DNA of 63,218 nt, the filler included. It is 5 parts of 5 records of this genome, joined end to end, with 100 filler letters (N's around TTAATTAATTAA, not from the genome) between each part and the next. Parts side by side here need not be neighbours in the genome. Positions count along the whole stretch, not along the records: positions 1 to 12,917 come from SRR31156797_9741; 4 more parts are not named here. One strand, 5' to 3'. Within the stretch, counting starts at the first letter, position 1; the number at the start of each line of letters is the position of its first letter. Both the position numbers and the translations under genes were made by a program. Shown here one piece after another: positions 1-20,316 of this stretch. Under the pieces are notes generated by a model. That model was given only the letters and a program-made list of their open reading frames with translations. It was not told the origin of the DNA and searched no databases.

Positions 1-321
1 CAGGTTTTTGCCGATGTCGTGGAGGTCGCCCTTTACCGTACCGATGATCACGGAAGCGGCAGATCCACTATCGCTTTCGGAAAGCAGGGGTTTGAGAATC
101 TCCACACAGGCCCCCATGGCCTGGGCAGCCATGAGCACCTCGGGGATGAACATCTCACCGGATTCCATACGCTCGCCCACAATATCCATACCTGCGATGA
201 GCCCTCGGTTGAGGATTTCATCGGCAGGTACATCGGCGCCTAACGCTGCGTTTACCAGGTCAGTGAGTTTGGGGGCATCGCAGGCCACCAAGGCATCAGT
301 CATTGCATTAAATTCTGTCAT
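1..321 (-). CDS. Corrinoid (cobalamin-binding) protein of a methylamine methyltransferase system, MttC/MtbC-like; 3' end runs off the window
   Basis: Not in the ORF track. Manual translation from ATG 321 gives MTEFNAMTDALVACDAPKLTDLVNAALGADVPADEILNRGLIAGMDIVGERMESGEMFIPEVLMAAQAM...VIIGTVKGDLHDIGKNL, i.e. the B12 cap domain plus the DxHxxG motif. A GGAAGGAA RBS lies upstream. Confidence 0.95.
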   Translation of the reverse strand, partial: MTEFNAMTDALVACDAPKLTDLVNAALGADVPADEILNRGLIAGMDIVGERMESGEMFIPEVLMAAQAMGACVEILKPLLSESDSGSAASVIIGTVKGDLHDIGKNL

Positions 322-370
322 TTTGTTTCCTTCCTTTCTATTATCATTCAACGAATTTCAACATTTATTT

Positions 371-1783
371 TCAATTGTTTTCAGGTACCATATATGACCT
401 GAGCACAGGTATCTTACTGGCCAGGTAGTAGGCGGATGCGGTCGTAATTACAGACCAACCAGTGGCTGTGCAGATATAAAATACTTTTTGTTTGGGAATG
501 ATGTTCACCGAATCATAGCACATGACATAGGAGATCACCCCAAGGGCAAAGCAGGCAAGGGAGATAAGGTTGAATCCACCGGTATAATAATACCTGCGGT
601 TGCCTTCAACCATGTAGGCATCCCTCATGGATATTTTCTGGTGCCGGACCAAAAAATAATCCGTAAGAATAAGGGCCAGGATGGGTCCCACAATCACCCC
701 CACAACCCCCAGAAAGGTATTGTAGTATTTCCATATACCGCCCCAGAACAGCAGGACCAGGATAAAGGAGGCCCAGCCCAGGCAGACCCATTTGAATTCT
801 GCTGTGGGCTTAAGGATCTTTGAGCTAACCGTCACACTATAAAGGTCAATGGCTGTTGTGGTGACATTGGCAATGGCCACCACAAAAACAGACATGAGCC
901 CCAGGTACGCTCCCCCGAGGCTGATGAGCCATTCGGTTGGATCCAGGCTGACTGCGCCGGTCTTGGCGGCCATGACCAGGCCGGTCATGCCCCCCAGGAT
1001 GACAAAACCTCCCATGATGATGCTGAACCCAAGTACATGGCTCCAGTATGATATCCTTTCTGATTTGGCAAATCTGGGGATCACCCCCAGCACGGATATC
1101 CATGCCAGTACATAGGCCAGGTTCCACTCCACGGCAATGGTATAGGGTGCTATATAGGATGCCGCATCAATGGGCTTCAGGTTATTCAGCCCGTTCCAGG
1201 TCATATTCTTGAGCAGGAGGACCATCATGATACCCCCCACGGCCAGGAGGCTGGGCACCATGATACGGGTGGCCCATTTCACCACTATGGGTCCCCTGAT
1301 GGCCAGGGCTGTGCCGATGACCACGCAGGTGGATCCCAGCCAAGGGATCCAGTCTTGCGAGATGTCAAGGCCCCCGGCCGCCAGGATCTTTATGAATGAA
1401 TTGGCATATAATTGGGCATTAATGGCCGAATACCCCCATCCGGAAATAAAGATAAGCAGGGTCATGATGACCATGCCGGTCTCCCCGAAAATTGCCCTCA
1501 TAAAAAAAAACACATCCATGCCGTGGCGGCATGAGATGATGGTCAGGGTATAGGCAAAGAGCCCGCCCAGGACATATACAAACAGGGTTGAAAAAACCAA
1601 TTGCTTGAAACTAAGCATAGAGGCCAACCATCCGCCCTGGACATAGCACCAGGAGGCAATGGCATATCCGCCGGTGAGCCATACCATGTCCCAGAAGGAA
1701 TAGATGCGTTCCCCCGGGGTGTTCAGGGTGGGGATGGTGCCGAAAAACGCCTCGCTCATTGCTTTTTGATTTACATTACTCAT
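371..1783 (-). CDS. NCS1 (purine-cytosine permease) family transporter
   Basis: About 12 hydrophobic segments and NCS1-like motifs (WCYVQGG, DYFLVR, YYYTGGFN). Start moved to ATG 1783, which follows a GGAG RBS. Confidence 0.8.
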   Translation of the reverse strand: MSNVNQKAMSEAFFGTIPTLNTPGERIYSFWDMVWLTGGYAIASWCYVQGGWLASMLSFKQLVFSTLFVYVLGGLFAYTLTIISCRHGMDVFFFMRAIFGETGMVIMTLLIFISGWGYSAINAQLYANSFIKILAAGGLDISQDWIPWLGSTCVVIGTALAIRGPIVVKWATRIMVPSLLAVGGIMMVLLLKNMTWNGLNNLKPIDAASYIAPYTIAVEWNLAYVLAWISVLGVIPRFAKSERISYWSHVLGFSIIMGGFVILGGMTGLVMAAKTGAVSLDPTEWLISLGGAYLGLMSVFVVAIANVTTTAIDLYSVTVSSKILKPTAEFKWVCLGWASFILVLLFWGGIWKYYNTFLGVVGVIVGPILALILTDYFLVRHQKISMRDAYMVEGNRRYYYTGGFNLISLACFALGVISYVMCYDSVNIIPKQKVFYICTATGWSVITTASAYYLASKIPVLRSYMVPENN

Positions 1784-1821
1784 AGATAAAAACTCCGACA
1801 AATCATTATAGTGATCCGGTC

Positions 1822-2055
1822 TTAAAAACTTCCCCCGAAAAGGATCAGTCCAGCCATGAGGCAGGCCAGTCCTACAGCAAAGAAGATATCTGCTTTGTTG
1901 AATCTTTTAACCCTTTTGTAATCCGGGCATTCAATAATTCTTATACGCCGCAGGATCTCTTTTTCCAGGGTTTCCCGATAATTTTCACTAAGGATCTGCT
2001 CTGTTTCACCTGCCGGATCTGGTTCCGCCGTCATCAGGTTCTGGTCAACGGTCAT
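1822..2055 (-). CDS. Small membrane protein with a single C-terminal TM helix, putative permease partner
   Basis: 77-aa ORF in the operon orientation, with a GAAAGGAAG RBS, a charged N-terminus and a hydrophobic C-terminus (IFFAVGLACLMAGLILFGG). Confidence 0.65.
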   Translation of the reverse strand: MTVDQNLMTAEPDPAGETEQILSENYRETLEKEILRRIRIIECPDYKRVKRFNKADIFFAVGLACLMAGLILFGGSF

Positions 2056-2117
2056 ACATTCTTCCTTTCGACGCCTGCAGCCATCCGTATAAAGGCCAGG
2101 CGCAGGCGGTTTTGGGT

Positions 2118-3482
2118 TCAGACACTGTCTTTTAAAGCATCCCGGCGTTTATCTTCCACATGCACCCTGTACCAATAAAGGGGAACGGCAATCAGGGTGG
2201 CTCCAACCCCGTACATGATATTTTTCATGCCATAGGGAATAGTGCCCACAATGAGCAGGGAAAGATAGAAGAAAGCAGCCACCACACTCAGGCCGCAGAT
2301 GATGGCCGGGGTTTTATAGGGTCTGGGCATGTCAGGAAAATCCAGGCGCATGACCGGAACGGCAAGGCCGGCAAAAAAGACCATTAAAAAGTAGGAGATT
2401 CCACCGGCAACCACCATAAAGGTGGGCTGTTCCCCGCCTGTGGTGATGAGGAATACAAAATTAACAATATAGATGGATGCAACCGCGGTAAAGGGGACCT
2501 GGTTTCTATTGAGCTTTCCAAAGCACCTTGGCATGAGCCCGCTCTGGGAGGCTTCATACAGCACCCGTGATGCCGGCAAAAAGCAGGCATTGGTGCCGAT
2601 GATCAGGCCCAGGATGAGGAAGACGCCAAACACTTTTGTAAATATCGGGCCATACACCGCATCGGCCAGGGGCAGCAAGGGGGTGTATGGGTCGTTGAGC
2701 ACCACATCCAGGGGGAGGTACCAGGTCATGGCACTGCAGATGGCCAGGGTCATGATCACCATGACAAAGGCAGAGGAACCCAGGGCCTTTTTGGTATCTT
2801 TTTCCGGATTTTTGTATTCTGCGATGAGGGTGAGAACCGCTTCCATGGAAGCGGCAGACCAGCCAACCAGAAAACATGAACTCAAAAAGATGGCAAAGGG
2901 ACTGCCGCTGCCGGCATTGATCTGGACGGCTGAAAAATCAGGGAACAGGGCAGGCAGCTTAAAGAAGGCCCCTATAATCACCATGAGGGTCAGCCCAAAA
3001 AGAATAAACATCAGACTCTGGATTTTTTCGATGATATCCACGCTGATCAGGTTGATCCCAAATACTAAAGTCAGGATAACAATGGCCACATAATTTAAAT
3101 AGGCGTCGGGAAAGGGTATAAAATACTGGATAAAGTAACTTGCAAAGGCTGCAATGGCTCCCACGGCAAGGCCCCAGCCCGTTACATATCCCCATTGGGA
3201 GATCACGGCAAAAATGGGATGCCGTTTCTTAAAGCCTTCAATAATGCAGGTGGCCAGCCCCCCTGCCTTGTCCGGAAACATGAGCAGGATTTCCAGGGAG
3301 GCATAACTGATGGCGGCAATGGCAAGTACCGTACACAGCCAGGACAGGGGAGCCCATACTCCCACTTTTTCCACCGCAGGACCGCTCAGATAGGTCCAGT
3401 CCAGGATACCGCTTAAAATAATGGTCAGGCCCAGTTTCCAGGTTGCACTTCGTTTCAATTGGGTCGTACTTATATCACTCAT
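2118..3482 (-). CDS. APC-family amino acid/amine permease
   Basis: 454 aa with about 12 TMs and APC signatures (FPDKAGG, AEYKNPEKD, ASRVLY, MPRPYK). Confidence 0.88.
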   Translation of the reverse strand: MSDISTTQLKRSATWKLGLTIILSGILDWTYLSGPAVEKVGVWAPLSWLCTVLAIAAISYASLEILLMFPDKAGGLATCIIEGFKKRHPIFAVISQWGYVTGWGLAVGAIAAFASYFIQYFIPFPDAYLNYVAIVILTLVFGINLISVDIIEKIQSLMFILFGLTLMVIIGAFFKLPALFPDFSAVQINAGSGSPFAIFLSSCFLVGWSAASMEAVLTLIAEYKNPEKDTKKALGSSAFVMVIMTLAICSAMTWYLPLDVVLNDPYTPLLPLADAVYGPIFTKVFGVFLILGLIIGTNACFLPASRVLYEASQSGLMPRCFGKLNRNQVPFTAVASIYIVNFVFLITTGGEQPTFMVVAGGISYFLMVFFAGLAVPVMRLDFPDMPRPYKTPAIICGLSVVAAFFYLSLLIVGTIPYGMKNIMYGVGATLIAVPLYWYRVHVEDKRRDALKDSV

Positions 3483-3556
3483 AACTCATTCCTGTATATG
3501 TTTTAGGATCTACCCCTCCTTGGGGAACCCCGTGAAGGGGCAGACCTGTTCAGGGG

Positions 3557-5017
3557 TTATTCCATACTTTTCAATAGTTTATCAAACTCCTGGGCCAATC
3601 CCGGCTCAAGGGGATCGGGCCTATAGTTTTCATACAGATCCACGGCCTTTTCCAAAGCCTGCTGCCGGATATCTTTGGCGCCCTCAGATTCCCATTTTTC
3701 CCGGTTCATCCGTGTCAGCAGATCCGGCTGGATCTGTTCCTTGCGCATATATTTCAAGGTATGGGGATCTGCAAGGAAGTGTCCGCCCACCCCTGTTTTT
3801 TCAATCACCTCAAGTGCGATGGTTTCATCCGTCACCTCTACGCCCTGCACCGTCCGTCTGATCATCCTGATCAAGTCGTGGTCCAGGAGAAGCTGGGGAA
3901 AACTGAATCCCATTCCCATGTCAAGCATACCGGCACCGTAAATGATGTTGGCACCTGCCAACGCCGCCATTAGTCCGGTTATTGTCTTTTCATGGCCTGC
4001 CTGGGCATCACTGATTTTGGCGTCTGCCTACAATCCACCGACCAGAGAGGGCACATTGTAGAATTTGGCCATCTGTGCCAGAGAGGCATTCAAAAGACCG
4101 AATTCAGGTGCGCCCACTGTGGCTGCACTATATCTCATATCAAAGGTTGTGGTGGAAGACCCGTAATAAAACTGGGTGCCAGGCGCTGCCAATTGGGTGA
4201 GGACCAGACCGGCCAGAACTTCGGCATTATGCAATGCCACGGTTCCGGCAAGGGACATGGGGCTTGTGGCCCCGGCCATGGCCATACTCAGGACACAGAC
4301 AGGAATACCATACTGGGCCGCAAGAACGATGACTTCAGTGGCTTCCGGGGGGAGGCGCAAAGGAGACACCGGGCAGACCCCAAAAGAAAAAATAGGCCTT
4401 TCTTTTAACTCTTTTGTACCGCCTGCCACCATCTCCGCCATTTTAATCTGGACAGAAGCCATTTCCCTGCCCTGACCGTCTGCCCAGAAATGTTTGGATG
4501 AGTTCTTGAACCCTGCGGCTGTGGCATAAAGATCCACCAGATGTTCGGGTACATCATGGGGAGCCAGAACCGCCAGGTTCATGTCCAGGTGTTCCAGGGC
4601 ATCGCAGACCCGCATGGCGTTTTCAAGATCAGCCAGGGTGGACTGGCGTATTTCTCCGGTATAAATATCCTCCATTTGAAGGCCCACGCCAAAGGGGATA
4701 AAACTGATCCTGTTTTCCCCGGCCAAAAAATCATTCTTGGGGTTCCTGGCCTTAAAAGCCACATGGGGCGGGGTCTTTTTAGTACAATCTTCAACCACAT
4801 GGGGGGGGATGAATACTTTTTTGCTTGCCTCTTCTACCCTGCAGCCGCCGTCAGCATATATGCCCCGGGCGTCGTCATCCAGTATTTCCACACCCACGTG
4901 CTGAAGGATATAGAGGCTGGCATTGTGCATCCGCTCTATTTCCTCCTGGGTGTACATGGAGATACTGCATCCAAGCTGCTGGGAAAAGGCATTCTCCAGC
5001 CTGTTACTGCCGATCAT
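3557..5017 (-). CDS. mttB: Pyrrolysine-containing trimethylamine:corrinoid methyltransferase (in-frame TAG at 4028-4030), 486 aa
   Basis: ORFs 4028-5017 and 3557-3970 are in the same frame, separated by one TAG plus 19 sense codons. Read-through gives [43 protein letters not shown], matching the Pyl context of methanogen MttB. Confidence 0.93.
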
Positions 5018-5064
5018 TGATCTCCTCCTTTTTTATGATTAATGAATACAGTGATTGTCACGGG

Positions 5065-6531
5065 TTATGCCACGGCCCGGTCCAGAAGCTCCTTGTCGGC
5101 CGCTGCCATGATGCCGTCCAGTTCCTGTGATGCCTCCGAAGACAACTGGGGCGGCTGGTGGTTTTCCAATATCCATCTGGCCTTTTCCACAGAGGCCTCT
5201 ATGATATCCCTGAACCGCTTTTTTGGGGCGTCCCACTGGTAGCGGATATTATTTTGCCAATAATTGCGGAGATTCATGGCCGACCAAGAGCTGGCAATAT
5301 AGGAACCGCCGGTTCCCACGCCGATGATTTCTTCCACAGCCGCATCAAGGTTGTCAAAATCAAGCCCCTGGGCGATAGCAGCGATTTCACCGTTTATGTA
5401 ATCATCAATGACAAAACGCTGGGGGTAACAGAGGGTATCGTTATCAGTGAGGCCGAAATTCAGGATCATATCCGGACCGGTAAAATAGCAGAGCAGTGCG
5501 TCGATGGAGAGATCATGCCCCATTTCCAGGCAGTTCAAAGGTATGTTTTCATCCACTCCCCCGTATCCACTTACCGACGGCATGCCGTAAAAATGGGCCA
5601 GCTGGGTGGGGCAGGTATTGAGCAGGGGCTGGTTGGGGGTGGAGGACAGACAGGCGCCAGTATAGGGATTCATTGATGTGGAAAACAGGGCATAGTAGAC
5701 CCCGGTTCCCGGGTACATCAACTGGATCAGGCAGTTAAGACTGAGGATCTCGGCATTGCCTAGTGCGATGTAGCCTGACTGGGATGAAGGCGCAGTGCCG
5801 CCTACCAGGGGCATGGTGGCAATGCCCAGGGGGAGACCTGCTTCGGCAAATATCATGGCACTGTCAATGGTGTCCTTTTTCTGGACCAGGGGAGAAACCG
5901 GGCAGGCCAGGTAGCTCACCGGAGGATGGGCCCTCATATATTCCTCTGAGCCTGACACCACCTTTGCCATTTCAACGATATACCGGGCCTGCCTAGGATC
6001 TGCGCAATTGATTATTTCCACATGCTTGCCCGTATTCCGAAAGGCAGCTTCTGCCTCATGGAGGTTGATGGTCTGCTTGGGCTTGTCCACGGCGGAAAGA
6101 ATGGTCCAGTAAATATTATTGCTGTCAAAATAATCTGCCAGCCTGGCCATGTCACCCACATCCTTTTTGGTGGCATCCCTGGGTTCTCCGGTTTTCAGGT
6201 CCATAATCCGAGATGCGCACCCAGAGGTGCTGGTATAGGTTGTACCGTCACCAAATTCAAGGTCATAGGCTTCTCCGCCCCGGCCGCCCTTAATATAGGT
6301 TTTGGGATTTTTCTTTAAGCATTCCCATATAAGGTCTTCTGATATTTTTACATTCTGCTTTTCAAAATCCACCTGGGCCCCGGCCCGGGCAAACACATTG
6401 AGGTATTCTTCCGAAGGCAGATGAATTCCGGTTACGGATAATATCCTCATACTGGCCTGATGGAGCTTTTCAATCTGGGATTTACTGAGAAGATTAATAC
6501 GGTTTTCCGGATTGATTTTTAATCGTTTCAT
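5065..6531 (-). CDS. Non-pyrrolysine MttB-superfamily (trimethylamine/quaternary amine) corrinoid methyltransferase
   Basis: 488 aa with MttB motifs (LHQASMRILSVTG, CPVSPL, PLVGGTAP, GNAEIL). Gly aligns to the Pyl position (PSVSGYG-G-VD). Confidence 0.88.
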   Translation of the reverse strand: MKRLKINPENRINLLSKSQIEKLHQASMRILSVTGIHLPSEEYLNVFARAGAQVDFEKQNVKISEDLIWECLKKNPKTYIKGGRGGEAYDLEFGDGTTYTSTSGCASRIMDLKTGEPRDATKKDVGDMARLADYFDSNNIYWTILSAVDKPKQTINLHEAEAAFRNTGKHVEIINCADPRQARYIVEMAKVVSGSEEYMRAHPPVSYLACPVSPLVQKKDTIDSAMIFAEAGLPLGIATMPLVGGTAPSSQSGYIALGNAEILSLNCLIQLMYPGTGVYYALFSTSMNPYTGACLSSTPNQPLLNTCPTQLAHFYGMPSVSGYGGVDENIPLNCLEMGHDLSIDALLCYFTGPDMILNFGLTDNDTLCYPQRFVIDDYINGEIAAIAQGLDFDNLDAAVEEIIGVGTGGSYIASSWSAMNLRNYWQNNIRYQWDAPKKRFRDIIEASVEKARWILENHQPPQLSSEASQELDGIMAAADKELLDRAVA

Positions 6532-6607
6532 TTCGATTTCCTTTTGGGTTTGGCATTGTCAAATTTTCAGGTATTGAATTATAATTCATGCATTGATCAG
6601 TCTAATT

Positions 6608-6624
6608 TGCACTAAGTGTGCCAA
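6608..6624 (-). promoter_or_regulatory. Sigma54 (-24/-12) promoter for the mttB operon
   Basis: Minus strand TTGGCACACTTAGTGCA has exact GG-N10-GC spacing, lies about 77 nt upstream of the first mttB start, and sits next to a divergent bEBP gene. Confidence 0.85.
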
Positions 6625-6651
6625 TCATATTGGTTCTTATTTTTATAATAT

Positions 6652-6664
6652 TATCAAGTAGTTA
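6652..6664. promoter_or_regulatory. IHF binding site
   Basis: TATCAAGTAGTTA matches WATCAANNNNTTR exactly. It has an AT-rich flank and lies between the sigma54 promoter and the candidate UAS. Confidence 0.7.
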
Positions 6665-6720
6665 TAACTACAACATCTGTAGAATTATTGCTATTTCCCA
6701 GTCTGGATCATGAAGAAGGT

Positions 6721-6732
6721 GCGAAATATCGC
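6721..6732. promoter_or_regulatory. Candidate upstream activator sequence for the bEBP
   Basis: Palindrome GCGA-AATA-TCGC about 100 nt upstream of the -24 element, a typical UAS distance. Confidence 0.4.
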
Positions 6733-6807
6733 CCCTTAGAATAAACATGCGGTGTCAATGCCTAAATTATGCCATTGAGTACTATTGGGCAGTGTTATCA
6801 TTTTAGT

Positions 6808-6836
6808 TTGACTTAAAACGACAGGAGGGGTACAAC
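6808..6836 (+). promoter_or_regulatory. Putative sigma70 promoter of the regulator gene
   Basis: TTGACT-17 nt-TACAAC about 100 nt upstream of ATG 6934. Confidence 0.45.
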
Positions 6837-6852
6837 CGATACGTCCTATTGA

Positions 6853-6896
6853 GGTGTGAAATAAAGCACCTATTTAATTTGCGGGTGTGAAATAAA
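6853..6896 (+). repeat. 13-nt direct repeat GGTGTGAAATAAA x2, each copy forming a hairpin
   Basis: Copies at 6853-6865 and 6884-6896, closed by AGGTG/CACCT and GGGT/ACCC stems. Confidence 0.7.
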
Positions 6897-6933
6897 ACCC
6901 CGGGTCCCCTACCTGGTTTGTGAAGAGAGTTCG

Positions 6934-9900
6934 ATGGAAATAAATAGTTTTAAACTCATAAAAACAATTCTGACACGGCATTCGTTTCAATTTTCAATTG
7001 GATACAAACTGCCCCAGAAAAAAAAATTTCTGGTAAAAACCATCCAAAAGAAAAAAGCACCGTTAACTATAAAGGAAAATCTCCTCAATGAAATCAAGGC
7101 GTCTGACAGCCATAAGATTAAAGACATTCTCTGCCCGGCCGCCATCCTGGAAAATGCAGAGGTTATAGGTGCCGCATACAAAGAGGCCCATCTGGTCCCT
7201 TTGTCCCTTGAGCTTGAAAAGGGAAGCCAGCCTTTGCTTTCTGCTTTGGAAACCGGGTTCAGGATTTCAAAAATTTTATCAAAGCTGCACAGCCAGGGGT
7301 TTATATTCCATGACCTATCTCCGGATACCATCTGGATTGACCCGGAGGGAGAGCTGTTAAAACTCATGGATGGCGGCAGGGCCTCTGACCGACCATATTC
7401 ACCGGATCAAAACCAAACAAACCGGATTTCATATTGGATGTACAAATCTCCGGAACAGGCCGGCCGGCTTCAAGCCCGGATTGATAGAAGAACGGATTTC
7501 TATTCCCTGGGTGCAGTCCTGTTTTGCCTCATTTCAGGAGCCCCCCCTTTCAACGGCAAGGATGCCCTGGAATTAATCCACAACCACATGGCCCGTCAGA
7601 CACCTGATTTAAAAACACTTTGCCCTTCAACCCCGGACATGGTGATCAGGATTATCGCCAAGCTCATGGAAAAAGCCCCGGACAACCGGTATCAGAGTGC
7701 GGACAGCATCATGGTGGACCTGAAGCGCTGCCTGACTGCCCTGGAAAAATCGGACAAGATTCCCTGCTTCAGGCTTGATGTGCTCAAAACCTCTCATTTA
7801 TTTGAATACCCTAAAACTTTATTTGGACGGGACCACCACCTTAATCAGCTCCTTTTATCCTTTGACAGGAGATCCGGGAAAGACTGCGGCCTGGCAATGG
7901 TCTCCGGGGGATCTGGTGTGGGAAAAACCGCCCTGGTAAAGGCCTTTGAAAAAAAACTGGATCAAGATCAGGGATATTTTGTGAGCAGCAAATGCGGAAC
8001 CACCACCTCATCAATCCCCTACAGCGGGATCATCGGTGCCCTTGAAAAAATCGCCCGCCGCATTCTCATGGAAACCGATGAATCATATATGGCCCTGGCC
8101 CAGGCCCTTACCGAATCCCTTGGGAAAAACATCGGGGTCATCACTCATTTTATTCCACAGTTCAGGCCTGTCCTTGGTGAGGTTTTTCCGGTTTCAGATG
8201 TCCAGGTACTTGAATCCAGGAACCGGCTTCACCAGTGCATCCAAAAAATCATCCGGGTGATCTGCAGGCACAAGGCCTTCCTGGTCCTGTTTATCGATGA
8301 TCTGCAATGGGTGGATCAGGCATCCCTGGATTTGATGCGCAGCATCCTCAACAGCCGGATAGACGGCCTGTTCTTCATCGGGGCCTACCGGGAAAATGAA
8401 GTTCCTTCCACCCATATTCTTAAGCAGACACTGGCCCAGATAAAAGGTTTCCGCCCCTCGGTTGATACCCTGGCACTCCAGAACCTGGACCATAAAGATA
8501 TAGAAGATATTCTCAAGGCCGCCCTTAAGCTGGAGGAAAAGGATATTGTATCCCTGGCAGGAATCACCCACAGAAAAACCAACGGCACCCCCCTGGTTGT
8601 AAAAGAATTTATTGATCTGCTGGTCAGGGAAAATCATATCTTTCTGAACAATAGAATGGCCTGGGAATTTAATCCGGACAAAATTGAGGCCCTGGGCATT
8701 AACAAAGACCTTGACCTCCTGGCCTGCCAGAAGCTGAGACGGCTGCCCAAAGAGGTCCGGCATACGGTTTCCATTGCCGCAGCCATTGGAAATACCTTTG
8801 ACCTAAAAGAACTGGCCGTCTATGAGGGCACCGGCCTGGACACCATCCAGCAACACCTTCGAACCGCCTGCAGAAAAAATGTACTGGTATCCTTGGGTAA
8901 AGGCCGATACCGGTTTGACCACGACCGGCTCCAGGAAAATGCCTATCGAATGATTCCTGAAGGATCCAGAACAAGGGTCCATATCCGCCTGGGCAACTTC
9001 CTTGCCAAGGATATGCCCCATGACAATAACCGGATTTTTCAGCACATTACCCATCTGAATACCGCCCACCACCTGGCCAGCAATGACCTGGAAAAAGGAG
9101 AATTGGCCAAATTGAATCTCGATGCCGGCATCCAGGCCAAAAAGGTGGCGGCCTTTACCGAGGCCTTCCGGTATTTTTCCATCGGCATTGAGGTGCTGGG
9201 GGATCTGGGCTGGGCAGATCACTATGACCTGTCCATGGATCTGAGTTACCAGGGGGCCGTGGCCGCCTATTTAAGCGGAAGCTTTGAAGATTCCGGCAAA
9301 TTATCCAGGTCCATCATAGAAAACGGAAACACCCAGACCGATAAAATCAGGGGATACGAGGTCCAGGTGGAATCTGCGATTTTTATGAACAAAACGGACC
9401 AGGCCCTTTCCATACTGCTGGAAGCCTTAGGCATGCTTGGTATTTACCTTTCCCTGAACACAACCAAGTCCCAGGCCAGGAAAGAAATTGTAAAACTAAA
9501 ACCTGTTGCCCAACAGCTTTTGAAAGCCCCCTGCGTTCAGGCAGATCCATCCGCGGATATAACCCACCAGACCATCATGCGCCTGCTTCTTCACGGCGCC
9601 AGGGCCACTGGGTGGATTGATTACCCATTGTACTGGAGCATGGTGGGGAAAATGTTGAAAATCACCCAGGCCAGGGGCTTTTTTGAGGAGTCTGTATTCG
9701 GTCTGGTTGCGGCCGGCGGTACCTTCTGTCATCTTTTGGAAGAGTATGAACTGGGTATCAGTCTTGCCGAATACGGATATGATTATATGCGCCGGTATAA
9801 CATTAAAACATGGGACATAGACGCACAGGTATACCTGCATGAAGAGATCACCTGCCTGAAAGAGCATCCGGATGTGGCCGTGAAACAGCTCACCGCCCTG

Positions 9901-12357
9901 TATTACTTGGCCATTGAAACCGGCAATATTTCCATGGCCGTTGAAAGCGCCCACGCTGCCTGTCTAATCGGCTTATTCGGAAACATGAGCTTAATGGAAT
10001 TGGAGCAACTGAGCATTAAATTCGATGAAATGCTCTCGGTCTCCTTTCCGGGGATCAAGCCCCTGCAGTCCAACCTGAAATTGATTAACAAAATCCTCCA
10101 GGCCCTCTTGGCTGACAGCCCCGGGGAATTCATTGGCAGAACCCTGGAGGCCGAGGCCGGCCATATCAATAAAGAGCTGACCCTTAACCTCAGTCTGTTT
10201 TTAAATACCCTGTTCACCAACGAGGCTGCCGCCCTGGAAGATGCTGCACACCTCCTTCCCTACGGGTGCAGTTTTGTCATGATACCAACCCGGTTTTATC
10301 TCCTCCTTTCTTTGCTGAACAAAAAAGACAAGGATGATCAAGATAAAAAAAATATCCTCCAACTGAGAGAGGAATTCAAAAATAGAGCACAGGCCTCTGA
10401 AAACAACTATGCCCACAGGTATCATTTGGTCAGAGCAGAAGAGTGCCGGCTGGGAAAAAAATGGGATCAGGCCATGATCCATTATGACCAGGCGGTTTCC
10501 CTTGCCCGGAAAAACAGATTTACCCTGGATGAGGCCATGACCCTTGAACTGACCGCCCGCTTTTTTGATCATATGGGGGTCGGTCAGGTGGCCAGGATCC
10601 ATTTAGCAACAGCCCACAGGATTTACCAAAAATGGGGAAGCCGGGCCAAAACCAGCCACATGGAAAAGAGTCATCCTTTTTTATCCGGTGATGAGACAAG
10701 GCCGATCCCCTTGACAGGCCGGGGCAGTGTGACGGCCGGCCATCCTTCCGGTCAGGCCAGTATTATGGACATGGGCAGTATCAACCAGGCCGTGGTCACC
10801 CTGGTCAGCGCCGTGGACGGCATCACCCTGCTTCAGGAACTCATGGGCATACTGCTCCAGAATTCCGGTGCTCAGCAGGGGTATCTGCTACTCAACCGGG
10901 ACAACAATATTGTGGTTGAATGCCAGGCATCAATCCAGGAACCGCTCCAGACCCTCCCCCCTGGCACCCATATAGAAAAATATGAATTCATGTCTCACAG
11001 TATTGCCCGTTATGTGTGCCGAACCAATAAAAAATTTTTGAGCGGCAACCTGATGGAAGATGTGCAGTTCGGCCAGACTGCATATGTCAGGCAGACACAG
11101 CTGAAATCAGTGCTGTGCATGCCGGTGGCCTATCAGAATGAGACCGTGGCCTTTCTCTATCTTGAAAACCGGCATATCAAACATACTTTCAGCGAAAAAC
11201 ACTTTCCAGTCATTCAGCTTTTGGCCAACCAGATAGCAGCAGCCATTGAACGGACTCGTCTCCACCGGGAACTGGTTCAGGAAATTGAAAACCGGAAGGC
11301 CAAGGAAAACGAACTCCGCACCGCCCTTAAACGGTTGAACCAGTTAAAAAAATCCCTGAATGAAGAAAATGAATACCTTAAGGAAGAGATCCGGAACAAC
11401 CATGGATTCAAGGACATTGTGGGGAAAAGTCCGGCATTGAAAAAAACCCTCTTCCTAGTTGAGCAGGTAGTGGCCTTTGATACCACGACATTGATTCTCG
11501 GAGAGTCGGGCACCGGTAAAGAACTCATTGCTAGAAGCATTCACGAACTGGGCCCCAGGAAGGATCATCCCATTATAAAAGTCAATTGTGCGGCATTGCC
11601 GGCACCATTGATTGAAAGCGAATTGTTCGGATTTGAAAAAGGCGCTTTTACCGGTGCGGTGAAATCTAAAAAGGGCCGTTTTGCTCTTGCCGACGGCGGC
11701 ACCCTGTTTCTGGACGAAATCGGGGACATGCCCATGGAAGTCCAGGTAAAACTTTTGCGGGTACTTCAGGAGGGCACCTTTGAACCCCTTGGGTCGGATA
11801 AGCAGATCAAGGTAGACGTCCGGGTAGTTGCAGCTACCAACAGGGATCTGGAAAAGGCCATCGCAGAAGGGGAATTCAGGGAAGACCTCTATTACCGGCT
11901 CAGTATTTTCCCCATCCATGTGCCCCCACTAAGGGAACGTAAGGAGGACATCCCCCTGCTGGTGAACCATTTTATTGACAAGAAAAACAAGGCGATGAAC
12001 AAAAATATAACCAAGATCTCCAGCCAGACCATTAACGCATTGACCAGCTATGACTGGCCGGGCAACATCAGGGAACTTGAAAATACAATTGAGCGTGCCA
12101 TCATCCTTTCTCCGGGCTCAACCCTGATAATGGACAGCAGTTTCACCACCGGCACAGGCCCGTGCAAACCAATGGGGCATACAGATCTTGATACAATTAT
12201 CCGCCAGCATATCATTGATGTACTAAATTTGTGCAATTGGCGGGTAAAAGGCAAGGAAAATGCCGCTGAAAAACTAGGCCTGAATCCAAGCACCCTCCGT
12301 TCCAAAATGAAAAAACTGGAAATTCGGCCAAAAGATCACTGCTACAAAATAAAGTAA
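6934..12357 (+). CDS. Giant sigma54-dependent activator: degenerate Ser/Thr kinase + P-loop NTPase + helical/TPR-like region + GAF + AAA+ sigma54 activator + HTH
   Basis: Kinase-like motifs (HDLSPDTI, YKSPEQAG, TDFYSLG, RYQSA), Walker A GGSGVGKT and Walker B LFIDDLQW, GAF (KSVLCMP...LYLEN), GESGTGKE, GAFTGA, LFLDEIG, WPGNIRELEN and a C-terminal HTH (LGLNPSTLRSKMKKL). Confidence 0.93.
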   Translation: MEINSFKLIKTILTRHSFQFSIGYKLPQKKKFLVKTIQKKKAPLTIKENLLNEIKASDSHKIKDILCPAAILENAEVIGAAYKEAHLVPLSLELEKGSQPLLSALETGFRISKILSKLHSQGFIFHDLSPDTIWIDPEGELLKLMDGGRASDRPYSPDQNQTNRISYWMYKSPEQAGRLQARIDRRTDFYSLGAVLFCLISGAPPFNGKDALELIHNHMARQTPDLKTLCPSTPDMVIRIIAKLMEKAPDNRYQSADSIMVDLKRCLTALEKSDKIPCFRLDVLKTSHLFEYPKTLFGRDHHLNQLLLSFDRRSGKDCGLAMVSGGSGVGKTALVKAFEKKLDQDQGYFVSSKCGTTTSSIPYSGIIGALEKIARRILMETDESYMALAQALTESLGKNIGVITHFIPQFRPVLGEVFPVSDVQVLESRNRLHQCIQKIIRVICRHKAFLVLFIDDLQWVDQASLDLMRSILNSRIDGLFFIGAYRENEVPSTHILKQTLAQIKGFRPSVDTLALQNLDHKDIEDILKAALKLEEKDIVSLAGITHRKTNGTPLVVKEFIDLLVRENHIFLNNRMAWEFNPDKIEALGINKDLDLLACQKLRRLPKEVRHTVSIAAAIGNTFDLKELAVYEGTGLDTIQQHLRTACRKNVLVSLGKGRYRFDHDRLQENAYRMIPEGSRTRVHIRLGNFLAKDMPHDNNRIFQHITHLNTAHHLASNDLEKGELAKLNLDAGIQAKKVAAFTEAFRYFSIGIEVLGDLGWADHYDLSMDLSYQGAVAAYLSGSFEDSGKLSRSIIENGNTQTDKIRGYEVQVESAIFMNKTDQALSILLEALGMLGIYLSLNTTKSQARKEIVKLKPVAQQLLKAPCVQADPSADITHQTIMRLLLHGARATGWIDYPLYWSMVGKMLKITQARGFFEESVFGLVAAGGTFCHLLEEYELGISLAEYGYDYMRRYNIKTWDIDAQVYLHEEITCLKEHPDVAVKQLTALYYLAIETGNISMAVESAHAACLIGLFGNMSLMELEQLSIKFDEMLSVSFPGIKPLQSNLKLINKILQALLADSPGEFIGRTLEAEAGHINKELTLNLSLFLNTLFTNEAAALEDAAHLLPYGCSFVMIPTRFYLLLSLLNKKDKDDQDKKNILQLREEFKNRAQASENNYAHRYHLVRAEECRLGKKWDQAMIHYDQAVSLARKNRFTLDEAMTLELTARFFDHMGVGQVARIHLATAHRIYQKWGSRAKTSHMEKSHPFLSGDETRPIPLTGRGSVTAGHPSGQASIMDMGSINQAVVTLVSAVDGITLLQELMGILLQNSGAQQGYLLLNRDNNIVVECQASIQEPLQTLPPGTHIEKYEFMSHSIARYVCRTNKKFLSGNLMEDVQFGQTAYVRQTQLKSVLCMPVAYQNETVAFLYLENRHIKHTFSEKHFPVIQLLANQIAAAIERTRLHRELVQEIENRKAKENELRTALKRLNQLKKSLNEENEYLKEEIRNNHGFKDIVGKSPALKKTLFLVEQVVAFDTTTLILGESGTGKELIARSIHELGPRKDHPIIKVNCAALPAPLIESELFGFEKGAFTGAVKSKKGRFALADGGTLFLDEIGDMPMEVQVKLLRVLQEGTFEPLGSDKQIKVDVRVVAATNRDLEKAIAEGEFREDLYYRLSIFPIHVPPLRERKEDIPLLVNHFIDKKNKAMNKNITKISSQTINALTSYDWPGNIRELENTIERAIILSPGSTLIMDSSFTTGTGPCKPMGHTDLDTIIRQHIIDVLNLCNWRVKGKENAAEKLGLNPSTLRSKMKKLEIRPKDHCYKIK

Positions 12358-12917
12358 TACAGGCATAGGTGAGCTTTGAATTCAAAAAATGGCCATCTAA
12401 ACGGCTCAGATATTCTGGAGTTCAAAGTTCATAAATGGGATTGAGTTTGGCGTAGAAACCGATCCTAAAATTTTTTTGGATAAAAGTGAGGAATAATCCA
12501 CTGTCAAGTCAATTTCCACTCAGGAGATATGAGTAATAGGAAAGCGTTCAATCATGGTATCTATGCTCTGTCTTTGAATTTCATTCGAGGAGTTGACTTC
12601 TTTTGCGAATAGTTGCACGAATCCTCCCATAATTTTTGATAGTTCAAACGAAGAGAACTATCCTTAGATAGAGAGTCTTCACAAACCCCGCTCCCCAAAA
12701 ATTAAAAAAGGCCAAAGACCCAGCCGCAAAAAACAGACCTGTCAGGTTGACAAATCTTTGTACCGTACTGGTACAGAAAGCAGGGAGAACGTTCAAAACC
12801 GCCTCGGTGCCCAGGCGGCGGTGTGGGGGGGGATGCCGAACCGGCGTGAGCTCTGAATGATCGCAGGACCGCAGATCATCAGAGTGCCCGCTGTATTTCC
12901 GGTCAGGACGACCGGAA

Positions 12918-13017
12918 NNNNNNNNNNNNNNNNNNNNNNNNNNNNNNNNNNNNNNNNNNNNTTAATTAATTAANNNNNNNNNNNNNNNNNNNNNNNNNNN
13001 NNNNNNNNNNNNNNNNN
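12918..13017. other. Artificial contig spacer
   Basis: 44 N + TTAATTAATTAA (stops in all six frames) + 44 N. Gene content and composition change abruptly across it. Confidence 0.98.
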
Positions 13018-13311
<294 letters not shown>

Positions 13312-13418
13312 CTAAATGTACCAACGCCTTGCCATCACAGCAAGGCATTGAAGCATAAACATGGACTCAAACACGCAATTTCTAACATATTCCTAACTTA
13401 GGTAGGAAAAATCGTATG

Positions 13419-16400
13419 TTATTGCCCGGTTAAGTTCGACTCACCTCGGAAAATAATACGATCATTGCCGCGATGAATACCAAATGTCACCACCGCAGAA
13501 GGATCTTCATCTTCATTGATACTGCCATCTTGGTTTTTCCACCAATTGTAACGTAGCCAAGGTTGTGCTTTTGACACCGAAGCGCTCGAACACCCTTGTT
13601 GAGAAACGGTGTTATCGTTGTCCAACCGCAGCCAAAAGCGTACTTGTTGACGAATATAGCCAACATCGGTTGTTGCTGGTTCAGCCGTAACCAATGAGCT
13701 AGCACCTTCAGAAACGGTCTCTTCACCAGATGCTCCAGCTAAACTCGCTTCCTGAACGATTGCAGCCCCATCAACCAACTCACGCCAAAGCACTTGCTGA
13801 CAGGTTTTATTGCCATCGGTAGAGAAGACAGAGTTAGAGTCGTCGGTATTCACAACGAACTGCGTGCCATTCCAATATTCAATTTGCAGCGGTACTCGAA
13901 TACTAGAAATTGTCGAAGTACCGCCAACATCAAACAATTTCATTCTTCCGTAACGAGAAGGCGGTTGGGTAGGGAAAAGTAAGCTACAACTCGACAATTC
14001 GCCATTGCCGTTAAACTCACTACTTTCATTTAGGCAGCTGGTTAGAACTTGCCCACGAGTTTCCACCGGATCCCCTCCCCCTTGAACAACAAAGCCAAAA
14101 CGGGTACTTGTTGAGAGTTCATCACCAATCAAATCTTCAGTGGGGATGTTAAATGGCCCATCCACTTCGGAAACATTTTTATTAGAACTGTTCAAGGTTA
14201 CATCACGATAAAAAACTGCACTTAAATCCGCCAAATGCCAGTTCGACTCCGAGCTGGAGGTGTCATACTGCCAGTTGTTATCGTTGCTAACTGAAAGTGC
14301 TAACCGGTCGCTGCCAATATCTTCATCTTGCAAGATATTCAGTGTGGCTCTTAACCCACCAGCAAACTTGTCGTAATTTTTAACTGAATTTTCCTTCGAG
14401 GTGCGAGGAAGAACCGTAAACTCAGCCAAATCATAAGGTTGAGAAAGATAAGAGATATTATTTTGCTCACTGACACTCCAATCCGACTGGGTTATTTCAA
14501 AATAGGCCGGATAAAAACGCCCTACCTCTCGATAGCCACGTTGGGTACATTCATACCAAGCTTGCAGACCAGAAACAGAGGAACAAGTAGCATTGTAACT
14601 TTCGGTCGCAGCCATCACTTTCAAGCTACCAACCTCATCCCAATACAAGTTCGTAAATAGGTACTCTGAATCGTTGTTTTCTCGCTCTTTTGATAATCCA
14701 TCATTAGAGGCCAACAATGCGGTTGAATTTGCGTTTGTCGGCGAAGCGACTTCACTAGATAGCTCGACACTATTTGCAAATAAGTGCTCTAAAAAGAAAT
14801 TGGTGGTGATGTTGGATGGGCTACACCAGCCACTGTTAGTCGCCACTTCACCCGTCACATCACTTTGGTATTTCAGTGGAATCACCTGAGCTGAGAATGT
14901 TTCACCAGCAGGAATAAATCCGTTGCCACCATTAACATTACCCGTTGCACTATCTAAGTTCGTATCACTGGTTGAGCATATCGCAAATGTCCATGGGCGG
15001 GAGTAAACCATGAATTGACCGGTTAGTTTACCGTTGCCATCAATTGGGCAATCATCCAAATCGCTACAATCGAAACTCTCGTCGGTAAGAGTCACAACCA
15101 TCTCTCCGGAATCTTCCAGCGTTAAAGCACGGCTATCTTCCGTTGAAACCCCGTCTTGCAAAACAGGAGAGAAACTCAATGCACCACTGCCGTTACTGGG
15201 TTGTTGCCACGACGAACTGACTGTCGGTTGCCCGTTATACCCGACATCCACTTGCTCTCCGCTACTGCACGCCAAAGCGGATACGGTTGTCGGTTGCTGT
15301 TTATTCGCAATAACATACTGGTCATCGACGGCAAATTTAAACGGAACAAATTCATAATTACCGGAGACGGAAGATACATCGGAATAACCATCTAAACTCG
15401 CATTAACCGCAACTGTCTGACTCTCACCATTGGTGGATAAGTCGATCGTTGCGGTGCCATTAGTGATAGAAACACTGGTCTCAACACCATTAACATTAAC
15501 CGTTGCGGTTCCATTAAAATCTGTCGCAACCGCTCCATTAGACATGACAGAAAGTGTAGGGGTTATTGTTTCACAAACCAAAGCGATGTCACTAATCGGG
15601 GTTAACTCTAATTGATAAGACGAGGTTTGATCCCTACTGCAATCGGTTACATTTGTTCCAATAACCAATGAATCATTACCACTAACAAAAACTTTACTTG
15701 CGGTTAAGCTGCCTTGAAACGTAAAACGGTCACCCTGAACAAACACACCATTCGCATAACCTACTGGATCTAGAAACAAGGCTGCATTTATGGTTACAGA
15801 GTTACTAGTGACCCTAAAATCCTGAGAGCCTAGATGTCCTAATAACCACAGATCATCAGGGTCTCCTGACTCATTAATTTTAATTCTATCTCCCTGAAAC
15901 AAAATAGTATTAAAGTGTAGTACAACCTCACCTAAGACACTAAGCTTGGCGTTATCGGCTGAAAATACAAGATTATTTACCCAATATTCTCCTTCAGATA
16001 AAATTATCTCACTGTTATTACGCCCTATTTCTATTTTCTTATAGTTCCCAGGCGGTAGTTGTTTCTTACAGCCATCCATACAGACTTCTTCAGGGCCATC
16101 TACTGAAAACGAAGACAACGATGCGGGAAACTGCTCATAGTTTAAGTTAGCATCGTATAAACAACTCTCAACCCCTCCGTTTCCATATATACACCCTGAG
16201 TTGTGGCCAGAAGCTAATATCTGAGAAAATGCCAACTCTCGCTTTGTTGATAAAGAAATAGTATTTCGATCACCATTTAATGAAAACGAACCATTTACCC
16301 GCCCATCAGCAGCAATATCATTTGATTGAAATGAATCAGGAAAATAAGCACAAAGGTCTAGCTCCACAACTTCTGGTTCTTCAGTAATATCCGCATCACA

Positions 16401-16832
16401 ATTAAGATTATAAATTGAATCATCACCAACAACGGGATAGCCTAGCCCAAACAATATAGAAACAATTGCGGAATCCAATCCAGATATAGATTCTTTCCTC
16501 TCCCATGGTCCACCACTAGTTACATTTTTTAAGTAATAATTCAAAGATCCAAACGAATAGCTTATGCGAACTCGATATAGACTTCCGAGTTCTAAATAAT
16601 CTTCATTAAAAATGTAGTAAAAACTACTGCTTCTATTTCCTGTGTACCATAGGTAATAATCCGGAAGTACCCAGCGATCAATTCTTAAAGATTGCTGTGT
16701 ATTTCCTTGACCAACAACATCAAACTGAATCACTGAACTAAAACTGCTAGGACGACAACTTTGTTGAGCAAATGCCGATGAAGCAAATAATGCTAATAAC
16801 AACAAAAATGTGTTAGCTATCTTTCTCATCAT
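13419..16832 (-). CDS. mshQ: MSHA biogenesis protein MshQ (large pilus-associated adhesin-like protein)
   Basis: Last msh gene before mreB. Has a signal peptide and the conserved C-terminus (GRFYP, RYGR, PWLRYNW, TFGIHRGNDRIIFRGE). Start overlaps the mshP stop (TGATG). Confidence 0.88.
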   Translation of the reverse strand: MMRKIANTFLLLLALFASSAFAQQSCRPSSFSSVIQFDVVGQGNTQQSLRIDRWVLPDYYLWYTGNRSSSFYYIFNEDYLELGSLYRVRISYSFGSLNYYLKNVTSGGPWERKESISGLDSAIVSILFGLGYPVVGDDSIYNLNCDADITEEPEVVELDLCAYFPDSFQSNDIAADGRVNGSFSLNGDRNTISLSTKRELAFSQILASGHNSGCIYGNGGVESCLYDANLNYEQFPASLSSFSVDGPEEVCMDGCKKQLPPGNYKKIEIGRNNSEIILSEGEYWVNNLVFSADNAKLSVLGEVVLHFNTILFQGDRIKINESGDPDDLWLLGHLGSQDFRVTSNSVTINAALFLDPVGYANGVFVQGDRFTFQGSLTASKVFVSGNDSLVIGTNVTDCSRDQTSSYQLELTPISDIALVCETITPTLSVMSNGAVATDFNGTATVNVNGVETSVSITNGTATIDLSTNGESQTVAVNASLDGYSDVSSVSGNYEFVPFKFAVDDQYVIANKQQPTTVSALACSSGEQVDVGYNGQPTVSSSWQQPSNGSGALSFSPVLQDGVSTEDSRALTLEDSGEMVVTLTDESFDCSDLDDCPIDGNGKLTGQFMVYSRPWTFAICSTSDTNLDSATGNVNGGNGFIPAGETFSAQVIPLKYQSDVTGEVATNSGWCSPSNITTNFFLEHLFANSVELSSEVASPTNANSTALLASNDGLSKERENNDSEYLFTNLYWDEVGSLKVMAATESYNATCSSVSGLQAWYECTQRGYREVGRFYPAYFEITQSDWSVSEQNNISYLSQPYDLAEFTVLPRTSKENSVKNYDKFAGGLRATLNILQDEDIGSDRLALSVSNDNNWQYDTSSSESNWHLADLSAVFYRDVTLNSSNKNVSEVDGPFNIPTEDLIGDELSTSTRFGFVVQGGGDPVETRGQVLTSCLNESSEFNGNGELSSCSLLFPTQPPSRYGRMKLFDVGGTSTISSIRVPLQIEYWNGTQFVVNTDDSNSVFSTDGNKTCQQVLWRELVDGAAIVQEASLAGASGEETVSEGASSLVTAEPATTDVGYIRQQVRFWLRLDNDNTVSQQGCSSASVSKAQPWLRYNWWKNQDGSINEDEDPSAVVTFGIHRGNDRIIFRGESNLTGQ

Positions 16833-17263
16833 CACTCCTTCACCCATACTTCTTGCCTGCGCGCCACCTGAAACTGACCACTACCACAAACGGCCGAACT
16901 TTGAACTTTATAATAACTTTCAGACTTCAGTGTCCCAATTCGATTACACGAAGTTGCGATTGAACAGCCTGGGAACTGGGTTTGTAACTGGTCGATCGCA
17001 CTGTTGACCGTTCCCCAGCTAGTGGTGCATACAGCGTCCACCTCGCTGCTATCCGAGTTAAGTGGATACAAATAAGTTAAAGCCAGTTCATTGGCAGAAT
17101 GAGTCGCAAACCAAGCTCTAGTGCCCAACAGCTCTTTCGCCAATGCGTCATTGTTAGACCACTCCATTCGAGACAGAGCCGTCGCTAAGAATCCCATCAC
17201 CACAATCACAAACACTGCGACGATATAAAGATTTCCGGTTTGCTTGCGAATCTTAGGGAACAT
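16832..17263 (-). CDS. mshP: MSHA minor pilin MshP
   Basis: KQTG-NLYIVAVFVIVVMG pilin-like N-terminus, ends ARRQEVWVKE, and synteny. Confidence 0.88.
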   Translation of the reverse strand: MFPKIRKQTGNLYIVAVFVIVVMGFLATALSRMEWSNNDALAKELLGTRAWFATHSANELALTYLYPLNSDSSEVDAVCTTSWGTVNSAIDQLQTQFPGCSIATSCNRIGTLKSESYYKVQSSAVCGSGQFQVARRQEVWVKE

Positions 17264-17975
17264 TGAGCACCTGTATATCGGTTTCAAAATGGCTTGATTC
17301 ACCATTTTGAGCAAAGGTCAGAGCCACATGCACCACCCCGCCACGCTGCAATGTCGGAGGAGAGTAACTGAACTCTCCAGAAGCAACACTATCGGCGACC
17401 TGAATACTATTACGAGTTATGCTATCTGCTGAAAAGTTCAAACAGTAGCTCACTAGCTGATTATAGATATATTGTCGATTAGAGACCGATTGACTGGTTA
17501 ACGGTGATGACAAATCTCGATTGTTAATATCATCTCCGGTATCGGGATCAGTAGTGACGTAAACATTGCCCTCTAAACTAATACCATTGTTAAAATCAGC
17601 TTGAGTTGTCGGGTTAATAATCATCTTTAAGTTATTGTAACTTGTCGGTGGATTATCATTACCAATCAGAAACTGCAAAGTACTATCGTCATAACCCGAG
17701 AGCACATAAAAGCCAGAATAAACAATCGGGTAAAATGAAACACACTGTTCAGAAGCTGAGCTGGTGACAGCAAAACTGTTAGGCACAGCATGACGAATTT
17801 CACGCGCCATTTTTTCCATAACAAATTTAGCTTGAGTCTGAATCTTCTGCCGAGCGACAGTATCTGCGTACCCTTTTGAGCCGAGTTCAATAAACCCGGC
17901 AATACCAAGCACCAGAATAGAGCCAACCACCATGGTCAGCACCATTTCAACCAGAGTAAATCCGCGTACTTTCAT
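17253..17975 (-). CDS. mshO: MSHA minor pilin MshO
   Basis: GFTLVEM prepilin motif, REIRHAVPNS, C-terminal VLNVP, and synteny. Confidence 0.9.
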   Translation of the reverse strand: MKVRGFTLVEMVLTMVVGSILVLGIAGFIELGSKGYADTVARQKIQTQAKFVMEKMAREIRHAVPNSFAVTSSASEQCVSFYPIVYSGFYVLSGYDDSTLQFLIGNDNPPTSYNNLKMIINPTTQADFNNGISLEGNVYVTTDPDTGDDINNRDLSSPLTSQSVSNRQYIYNQLVSYCLNFSADSITRNSIQVADSVASGEFSYSPPTLQRGGVVHVALTFAQNGESSHFETDIQVLNVP

Positions 17976-18559
17976 CAGTAGTTCCCTCTGAATCCAGTGA
18001 AATCGAACTCACCGTAGCGCCCTACATCAATCGAAACATCAATTCTCTTCATTGAAGTTACAGAAGGAGAAACAGAAAAATCACTCGCCACATAATCAGC
18101 AGAGATGGTAACAGTGAAGTGTGCGTATTGTTTTGATAGATCAACGGCTGAGTCATCGGTAAGAATGGTGGTTAGTGGGTAACCTGTGCCACCACAATCT
18201 GCGATCGTATCTGTGTACCAGCAACCGACATAATCATCCACATCATTAAACTGCGCAGGACTTGCCTCACCATCTCGACCAAGCGTGGTAGAACATGGGT
18301 TCGCTGAACCATTTCCATCAGGCTCACCACAACGAAATTCCCCGCCATCAAAATTGCTGTTGTGGTCAAAGCCTCTGGAAAGAATCTGACTCATTAAACT
18401 CTGCCCCAAATTAGCGGCTCGAACCTGATAATGAGGCGCCGCAGAGCGCTCGATTTGTGGATAAAGAAAACTGATCAGAGTCACCATGGCAAAGCCCATG
18501 ATCACCATTGCAATAATACTTTCAACCAGCGTAAAGCCCTGAGCTTTGCTTTTAACCAT
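17975..18559 (-). CDS. mshD: MSHA minor pilin MshD
   Basis: GFTLVE, FNDVDDY motif and terminal RGNY. Start at ATG 18559 overlaps the mshC stop. Confidence 0.9.
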   Translation of the reverse strand: MVKSKAQGFTLVESIIAMVIMGFAMVTLISFLYPQIERSAAPHYQVRAANLGQSLMSQILSRGFDHNSNFDGGEFRCGEPDGNGSANPCSTTLGRDGEASPAQFNDVDDYVGCWYTDTIADCGGTGYPLTTILTDDSAVDLSKQYAHFTVTISADYVASDFSVSPSVTSMKRIDVSIDVGRYGEFDFTGFRGNY

Positions 18560-19038: not shown

Positions 19039-19052
19039 AATACCTAGAATAC

Positions 19053-19083
19053 TCTCGTTTCCACTTCACCAGTGGAAACGAGA
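19053..19083 (-). terminator. 13-bp hairpin between mshA and mshC (attenuator or mRNA-stabilising stem)
   Basis: TCTCGTTTCCACT-TCACC-AGTGGAAACGAGA perfect inverted repeat. No strong U-tract follows on the minus strand. Confidence 0.6.
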
Positions 19084-19108
19084 AAAGATACTAGATAATT
19101 GCTAATTA

Positions 19109-19609: not shown

Positions 19610-19636
19610 AACGTACTCTCTATTTATATCTAAGGG

Positions 19637-20212: not shown

Positions 20213-20316
20213 TGGTAATCCATTAAAACTAGCATACCGACTATTATACGCTTATATCAACAGACAAAAAGCGAAACAACGTCATAAATCAGTGATTCGT
20301 CAGCTAATTGACAATT

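Follow-up and report, generated by a model that had tools for sequence, protein, structure and literature searches.

We asked whether the single in-frame TAG of an mttB gene, predicted to encode a trimethylamine (TMA):corrinoid methyltransferase, is a stop or a codon for pyrrolysine (Pyl). The gene lies on the minus strand at 3557..5017 of the window, the whole 63,218-nucleotide stretch of DNA analysed here, which consists of five contigs joined by artificial spacers. Its reading frame starts with an ATG at 5017, eight bases after an AGGAGG, and runs over 486 codons to a TAA at 3559..3557. A first-pass annotation had proposed that two separately predicted open reading frames (ORFs) form one frame broken only by a TAG at codon 330, and translation of the minus strand confirmed this: the TAG at 4030..4028 is the single interruption, with no other stop or frameshift, and the 156 codons downstream of it are open to the TAA. 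Standard gene callers do split the gene, as had also been predicted; translation table 11 yields pieces of 329 amino acids (aa; 4028..5017) and 137 aa (3557..3970).

The read-through protein (P0001, in which Pyl is stored as K) matched the TIGR02369 'trimeth_pyl' equivalog with 607.6 bits against a cut-off of 525, over model positions 2-469 of 469, and Pfam MTTB with 336.8 bits. Its best match among solved structures was Methanosarcina barkeri MttB (7xcl and 7xcn, E 1.2e-105; 7xcm, E 1.9e-106), and the alignment to 7xcl spans residues 9-479 of 486. In this alignment codon 330, the predicted Pyl codon (4028..4030, minus strand), falls in the column of X334, the Pyl of the methanogen enzyme, which is where the first-pass annotation had placed it. 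The active-site surroundings of M. barkeri MttB comprise Gly110, Thr111, Met249, Pyl334 and Tyr364; full conservation is given for Gly110 and Tyr364 only, Y364F is strongly impaired, and Thr111 plays its role via the main chain (PMC9842639, in excerpt). Read by eye from the alignment, the window MttB has G110, V111, M245, O330 and Y360 in these columns. The DNA beginning at the TAG also matched the Rfam family PYLIS_3 (RF02510, the mttB Pyl insertion region) at 3931..4030 on the minus strand, with 88.3 bits against a gathering threshold of 38 (E 1.8e-17), over model positions 1-100 of 100 and with four non-standard pairs marked by cmscan. The identification as a Pyl-type mttB thus held in the TIGR02369 score, the Pyl334 column and the Rfam match, and the gene at 5017..3557 is confirmed, at the level of sequence, as a real bacterial member of this type.

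Homologs were sought in an even sample of 401 genomes from a larger set belonging to the order of G001, a genome found via a locus titled 'MAG: Desulfobacterales bacterium' (MAG, metagenome-assembled genome). The mttB product had matches at E <= 1e-60 in 185 of these genomes, and at least 60 distinct genomes hold a homolog with exactly one stop, a TAG (hand count over 150 listed matches, with 258 more beyond these). The TAG column and sequence identity were compared in 20 fetched loci (L017-L036) from 20 genomes, placed by tblastn. The single stop is a TAG at query position 330 in all 20, and these homologs share on average 50.1% identity with the query after the TAG versus 43.4% before it, indicating that the sequence past the TAG is under at least equal constraint. 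Among 120 listed protein matches, 31 are 303 to 329 aa long and span no more of the query than its N-terminal 62 to 68%. Five relatives of 327 to 329 aa (P0005, P0006, P0015, P0022 and P0024), which include the two closest (91% and 90% identity), all terminate in ...GGL, one residue ahead of the TAG column. Scans with the MttB protein returned 11 loci on genome contigs, all distant (24 to 36% identity) and none a Pyl-type relative, and 21 loci on metagenome contigs, all at 29 to 36% identity.

Very probably, then, this mttB is functional and belongs to an uncultured member of the Desulfobacterota that is Desulfobacterales-like in NCBI terms, with its UAG at codon 330 decoded as pyrrolysine by a tRNA-Pyl and PylS encoded elsewhere in the same genome. 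The codon might instead be read without pyrrolysine, either by a suppressor tRNA that inserts a standard residue or through assembly of two separately translated pieces. Nothing direct speaks for this; the second ORF does have an ATG 20 codons past the TAG, at 3970. All 20 loci keep a TAG at the catalytic Pyl column, as would be expected only of a UAG that carries a specific meaning, and ARAGORN found no tRNA in the whole window. A split would moreover cut the TIM barrel, which in M. barkeri MttB extends from residue 82 to 395 (PMC9842639, in excerpt), and would remove a conserved 15-letter protein segment. We consider such a reading very unlikely.

A sequencing or assembly error would have to strike exactly the Pyl codon and give TAG, and relatives found in other data sets share the column of the stop. 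In addition, the Logan assembly of one run (X1) contains a 12,604-base contig identical to window positions 1..12604. That run is probably the source sample and hence not independent, and the support for the TAG from sequencing runs is at the level of contigs, not raw reads, which leaves the idea of an error some ground. In an independent run from another study (X2), 64% of the sampled words were present, and a 912-base contig over 3237..4148 spans the TAG, with six differences of unlocated position. That the stop codon is an artefact appears extremely improbable. No RNA run was found among the listed runs holding window words.

The Pyl machinery was examined in the same 401 genomes. The C-terminal domain of PylS (TIGR02367) scored over its cut-off in 57 of them, and the trait has been published (PMC8318568, in excerpt); the earlier statement that bacterial Pyl users are rare therefore fails in this group. 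By hand cross-tabulation, PylS accompanies a listed one-TAG mttB in 53 of 60 genomes, and two of the other seven (G139 and G038) have PylB over its cut-off, so that PylS or PylB is found in 55 of 60. The co-occurrence of one-TAG mttB and Pyl genes is strong but not perfect. On the contig carrying mttB (contig A), none of the five complete genes ends in TAG (three TAA and two TGA), which is compatible with a Pyl decoder in a tiny sample.

Several observations count against a functional, Pyl-containing TMA methyltransferase. No pylT, pylS or pylBCD was found on the 12.9-kb contig or elsewhere in the window, where an NCBIfam scan of 4 + 46 + 1 ORFs gave no pyl family, and the other four contigs possibly come from different organisms. 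Because no pyl gene is linked to mttB, we infer Pyl decoding by the host rather than observe it. Among the 60 genomes, five (G328, G366, G033, G079 and G158) are without PylS or PylD; the three of these covered by a PylB search (G328, G366 and G033) are also without PylB. G328 lacks a detected Pyl gene despite a contig that measures 4.8 Mb or more; a TAG-containing mttB is hence no guarantee of the machinery. These absences are the points in favour of a relic gene, that is, of a host in which the Pyl machinery was lost or never present and translation ends at codon 330 with an inactive 329-residue product. Such a relic is unlikely, given that the 156 codons past the TAG are undamaged and show higher conservation than those ahead of it, that mttB stands within an apparently intact operon with a corrinoid protein gene, that PylS or PylB is found in all but five of the comparable genomes, and that four of these five exceptions have their matches on numbered contigs of multi-contig assemblies.

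The remaining points of this kind concern the enzyme, its relatives and its possible promoter. The column of M. barkeri Thr111 holds Val, and it is the equivalog score alone that points to TMA specificity. The best of the 401 sampled genomes shares only 46 to 47% identity with the window MttB, and only two relatives at 90 to 91% appeared among the matches listed in a large protein search. The fold of the 100 bases that follow the TAG is no more stable than that of shuffled sequences (z -0.47; minimum free energy -27.3 kcal/mol versus a mean of -25.8 for 200 shuffles, 69 of which fold equally well or better), and because the fold does not rise above the shuffles we read the PYLIS_3 match as probably reflecting conservation of the coding sequence, not an RNA element. 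Finally, near-matches to the sigma-54 motif described below occur over the whole window at the level of chance (32 found versus 32.8 expected), so that this motif is suggestive by position only.

The G328 genome measures 5.3 Mb. Three mttB homologs with one TAG each lie on its contig C1 near 3.30, 4.08 and 4.82 Mb, and no PylS (E <= 1e-20), PylB or PylD over the cut-offs was detected in it. Its pyl genes may be divergent, or its mttB genes may persist without the machinery.

Contig A occupies 1..12917 (GC content 0.497) and is closed at 12918..13017 by a spacer, read from the sequence as N44-TTAATTAATTAA-N44. Further copies of this spacer at 36896..36995, 51890..51989 and 57806..57905 divide the rest of the window into contigs B (13018..36895, GC 0.442), C (36996..51889, GC 0.502), D (51990..57805, GC 0.486) and E (57906..63218, GC 0.355). 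Since the spacers separate unrelated contigs, physical linkage to mttB is limited to 1..12917, and genes flanking a spacer are therefore not neighbours in any genome. The stretch from 13 to 37 kb carries genes for the MSHA pilus, CsrD, Ssb and UvrA, which as neighbours of mttB would have implied a Pyl-using Vibrio; the N spacers ruled this out. Judged from its genes, contig B is Vibrio DNA: its UvrA is 95 to 96% identical to proteins of V. diazotrophicus and V. plantisponsor, and it carries CsrD (814.8 bits), an MSHA pilus operon, ssb and galU. Contig A is, by its homologs, Desulfobacterota-like, and the two kinds of DNA together indicate that the record is taxonomically mixed, from a metagenome or a contaminated bin. 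An exact look-up of 10 window proteins in a large protein collection found none of them.

The Logan contig of run X1 likewise stops at window base 1. The summed contig depth in this run reaches up to 1465 over 1-431 and 11200-12917, versus 22.8 elsewhere, and these high-depth stretches lie over the B12-binding and sigma-54 AAA+ domains and the terminal 400 bases of contig A. The assembly breaks at both ends of contig A because these ends fall in repeats or in sequence shared with many organisms. Elsewhere in the window, contig C carries at 38276-40420 a DUF2080 transposase-associated protein followed by two ORFs resembling S-adenosylmethionine methyltransferases, one of which has a weak match to CpaM (corrinoid protein-associated methyltransferase; 54.6 bits versus a cut-off of 180). 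An ORF with collagen-like Gly-X-Y repeats and weak matches to the Scl and Lcl adhesin models lies on contig E at 59941-61155; next to it, in a polysaccharide locus of low GC, are a flippase gene and DltB-like genes.

On contig A, mttB is the second of five genes on the minus strand. The first in the apparent operon encodes a 488-aa paralog (P0002, 5065..6531; Pfam MTTB, 176.5 bits; TIGR02369, 315 bits, under the cut-off), which is 26.7% identical to the Pyl-type MttB. It has no in-frame TAG, and the alignment, read by eye, shows Gly in the Pyl column and Leu in the Tyr364 column. With an MTTB domain, no UAG and a standard residue in the Pyl column, it fits the non-Pyl MttB superfamily. Downstream of mttB are an APC-superfamily permease of 454 aa (2118..3482; AA_permease_2, 112.5 bits), a candidate amine importer with a partial match to the trimethylamine N-oxide permease model NF053774 (118 bits versus a cut-off of 690), and an NCS1-family permease of 476 aa (371..1801; Transp_cyt_pur, 56.2 bits; TIGR00800, 55 bits, under the cut-off). 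The last gene, at 1..351, encodes the N-terminal 117 codons of a corrinoid (B12-binding) protein (B12-binding_2, 77.3 bits). Its top partial NCBIfam matches, MtbC, MtgC and TIGR02370 pyl_corrinoid, all fall under their cut-offs because the contig ends within the gene, at the window start. The gaps along this order (paralog, mttB, APC permease, NCS1 permease, corrinoid protein) are 47, 74, 316 and 19 bases, and the five genes are probably co-transcribed.

In five of the 20 fetched loci (L019, L022, L024, L028 and L034), whose flanks extend only about 1.5 kb, a stop-free MttB-family gene directly adjoins the Pyl-type gene. These stop-free neighbours are 29 to 38% identical to P0001, and the 20 loci show just 26 to 31% identity to the window paralog P0002. 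No close ortholog of P0002 was found beside the 20 other mttB genes examined. Tandem pairs of Pyl and non-Pyl MttB genes thus seem to be recurrent but not orthologous.

A divergently transcribed gene on the plus strand (6934..12357) encodes a regulator of 1807 aa. Its Pfam domains comprise a Ser/Thr protein kinase, AAA_16 (STAND-like), GAF, a sigma-54 AAA+ domain and HTH_8, and it matches sigma-54 activators of the NifA/NorR type. Its relatives form a small clade at 55 to 73% identity, including proteins from a Desulfobacterales MAG and from Desulforhopalus singaporensis. For the 73% homolog (P0245) as well as for the 91% MttB fragment P0005, the longest contig listed has 20,828 bases, which suggests, but does not prove, that the pairing of regulator and mttB is conserved. 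On the minus strand, a -24/-12-like motif of the form TGGCAC-N5-GTGCA occupies 6608..6623, some 77 nt upstream of the paralog's ATG at 6531; it reads TGGCACACTTAGTGCA (6623..6608), one mismatch from what we take to be the sigma-54 consensus. The intergenic region that separates the regulator gene from the mttB cluster contains two copies of TTATTTCACACC, spaced by about 30 bases, at 6850-6900 of the window (minus-strand reading), and this repeat may be a candidate activator binding site.

The regulator also bears on the host. Its nearest named homologs, from 'MAG: Desulfobacterales bacterium' (66%) and D. singaporensis (55%), fit the first-pass description of the host as Desulfobacterales-like. 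Searches for a close relative of the regulator gave matches in 37 of the 401 genomes of the order of G001 at E <= 1e-150, the best at only 34% identity, and in one of 401 genomes of its phylum at E <= 1e-220, at 32% identity. With no close relative among the genomes searched, the host is not placeable below phylum or class. A literature search for 'pyrrolysine' and 'Desulforhopalus' together gave no match.

With UAG 330 decoded as pyrrolysine, we infer that the locus works as follows. Transcription would probably start at a sigma-54 promoter under the neighbouring 1807-aa activator, and translation of codon 330 as Pyl would give a 486-residue TIM-barrel enzyme. The amine would be taken up by one or both permeases. 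The Pyl imine would bind TMA, the presumed substrate, and hand a single methyl group to the Co(I) form of the corrinoid protein, whose gene starts at 351 on the same strand. As no coenzyme M (CoM) methylase context is present, the methyl group presumably passes to tetrahydrofolate, not to CoM, and by analogy with published Desulfobacterales genomes it would be oxidised with sulfate as the electron acceptor (PMC8318568, in excerpt). The locus could also be imagined as a two-enzyme amine module not previously described, in which the very divergent non-Pyl paralog and the divergent Pyl-MttB share one corrinoid protein and two unrelated permeases under a sigma-54 switch operated by an amine-sensing 1807-aa activator, so that both TMA and a quaternary or otherwise unknown methylated amine would be used. 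We put this forward only tentatively and judge it unlikely.

Because gene callers split the gene and its close relatives in public protein sets are fragments of 327 to 329 aa, the TMA-using capacity of sulfate reducers is under-annotated. Bacteria of this kind have been proposed as competitors of methylotrophic methanogens for TMA in anoxic sediments (PMC8318568, in excerpt), and recognising Pyl-type mttB genes alters how methane-precursor turnover is read from metagenomes. The window gene is real but ordinary, as the trait is already described and common in sulfate-reducing Desulfobacterales. The novelty is modest and consists of a divergent MttB branch, a co-located non-Pyl paralog, a giant sigma-54 regulator and the gene neighbourhood; it involves no new principle.

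Compared with M. barkeri MttB (7XCL, 7XCM and 7XCN; Pyl334), the window gene is alike in the UAG column, in the equivalents of Gly110, Met249 and Tyr364 and in having a putative partner corrinoid gene nearby, and differs in being bacterial, in the change of Thr111 to Val and in the lack of a CoM methylase context. The paralog at 5065..6531 shares the MTTB fold family, the absence of a TAG and a corrinoid-dependent context with MtgB of Desulfitobacterium hafniense (2QNE) and with the glycine betaine methyltransferase 9YCE, but scores no more than 144 bits against MtgB and 160 against MttB.

The closest published parallels are bacterial. Marine Desulfobacterales MAGs have been described with complete Pyl and selenocysteine machinery and a TMA methyltransferase whose amber codon is the 327th of 485 (Kivenson, Paul and Valentine 2021, PMC8318568, in excerpt), and a Pyl-containing TMA methyltransferase has been reported for the delta-symbiont of Olavius algarvensis (Zhang and Gladyshev 2007, PMC1976440, in excerpt). 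The window gene resembles these in its host at the phylum level, in the enzyme and in the place of the amber codon (330 of 486 here). As far as the excerpted descriptions go, it is also like the marine loci in having a candidate cognate corrinoid gene within a few genes and transport genes nearby; the transporters are APC and NCS1 permeases here and ABC-type ectoine/hydroxyectoine permeases there. Unlike the genes of those MAGs, the window copy, whose identity to the best of the 401 genomes does not exceed 47%, belongs to a divergent branch, and unlike their loci as excerpted, it is accompanied by a distinct non-Pyl paralog and a giant sigma-54 activator.

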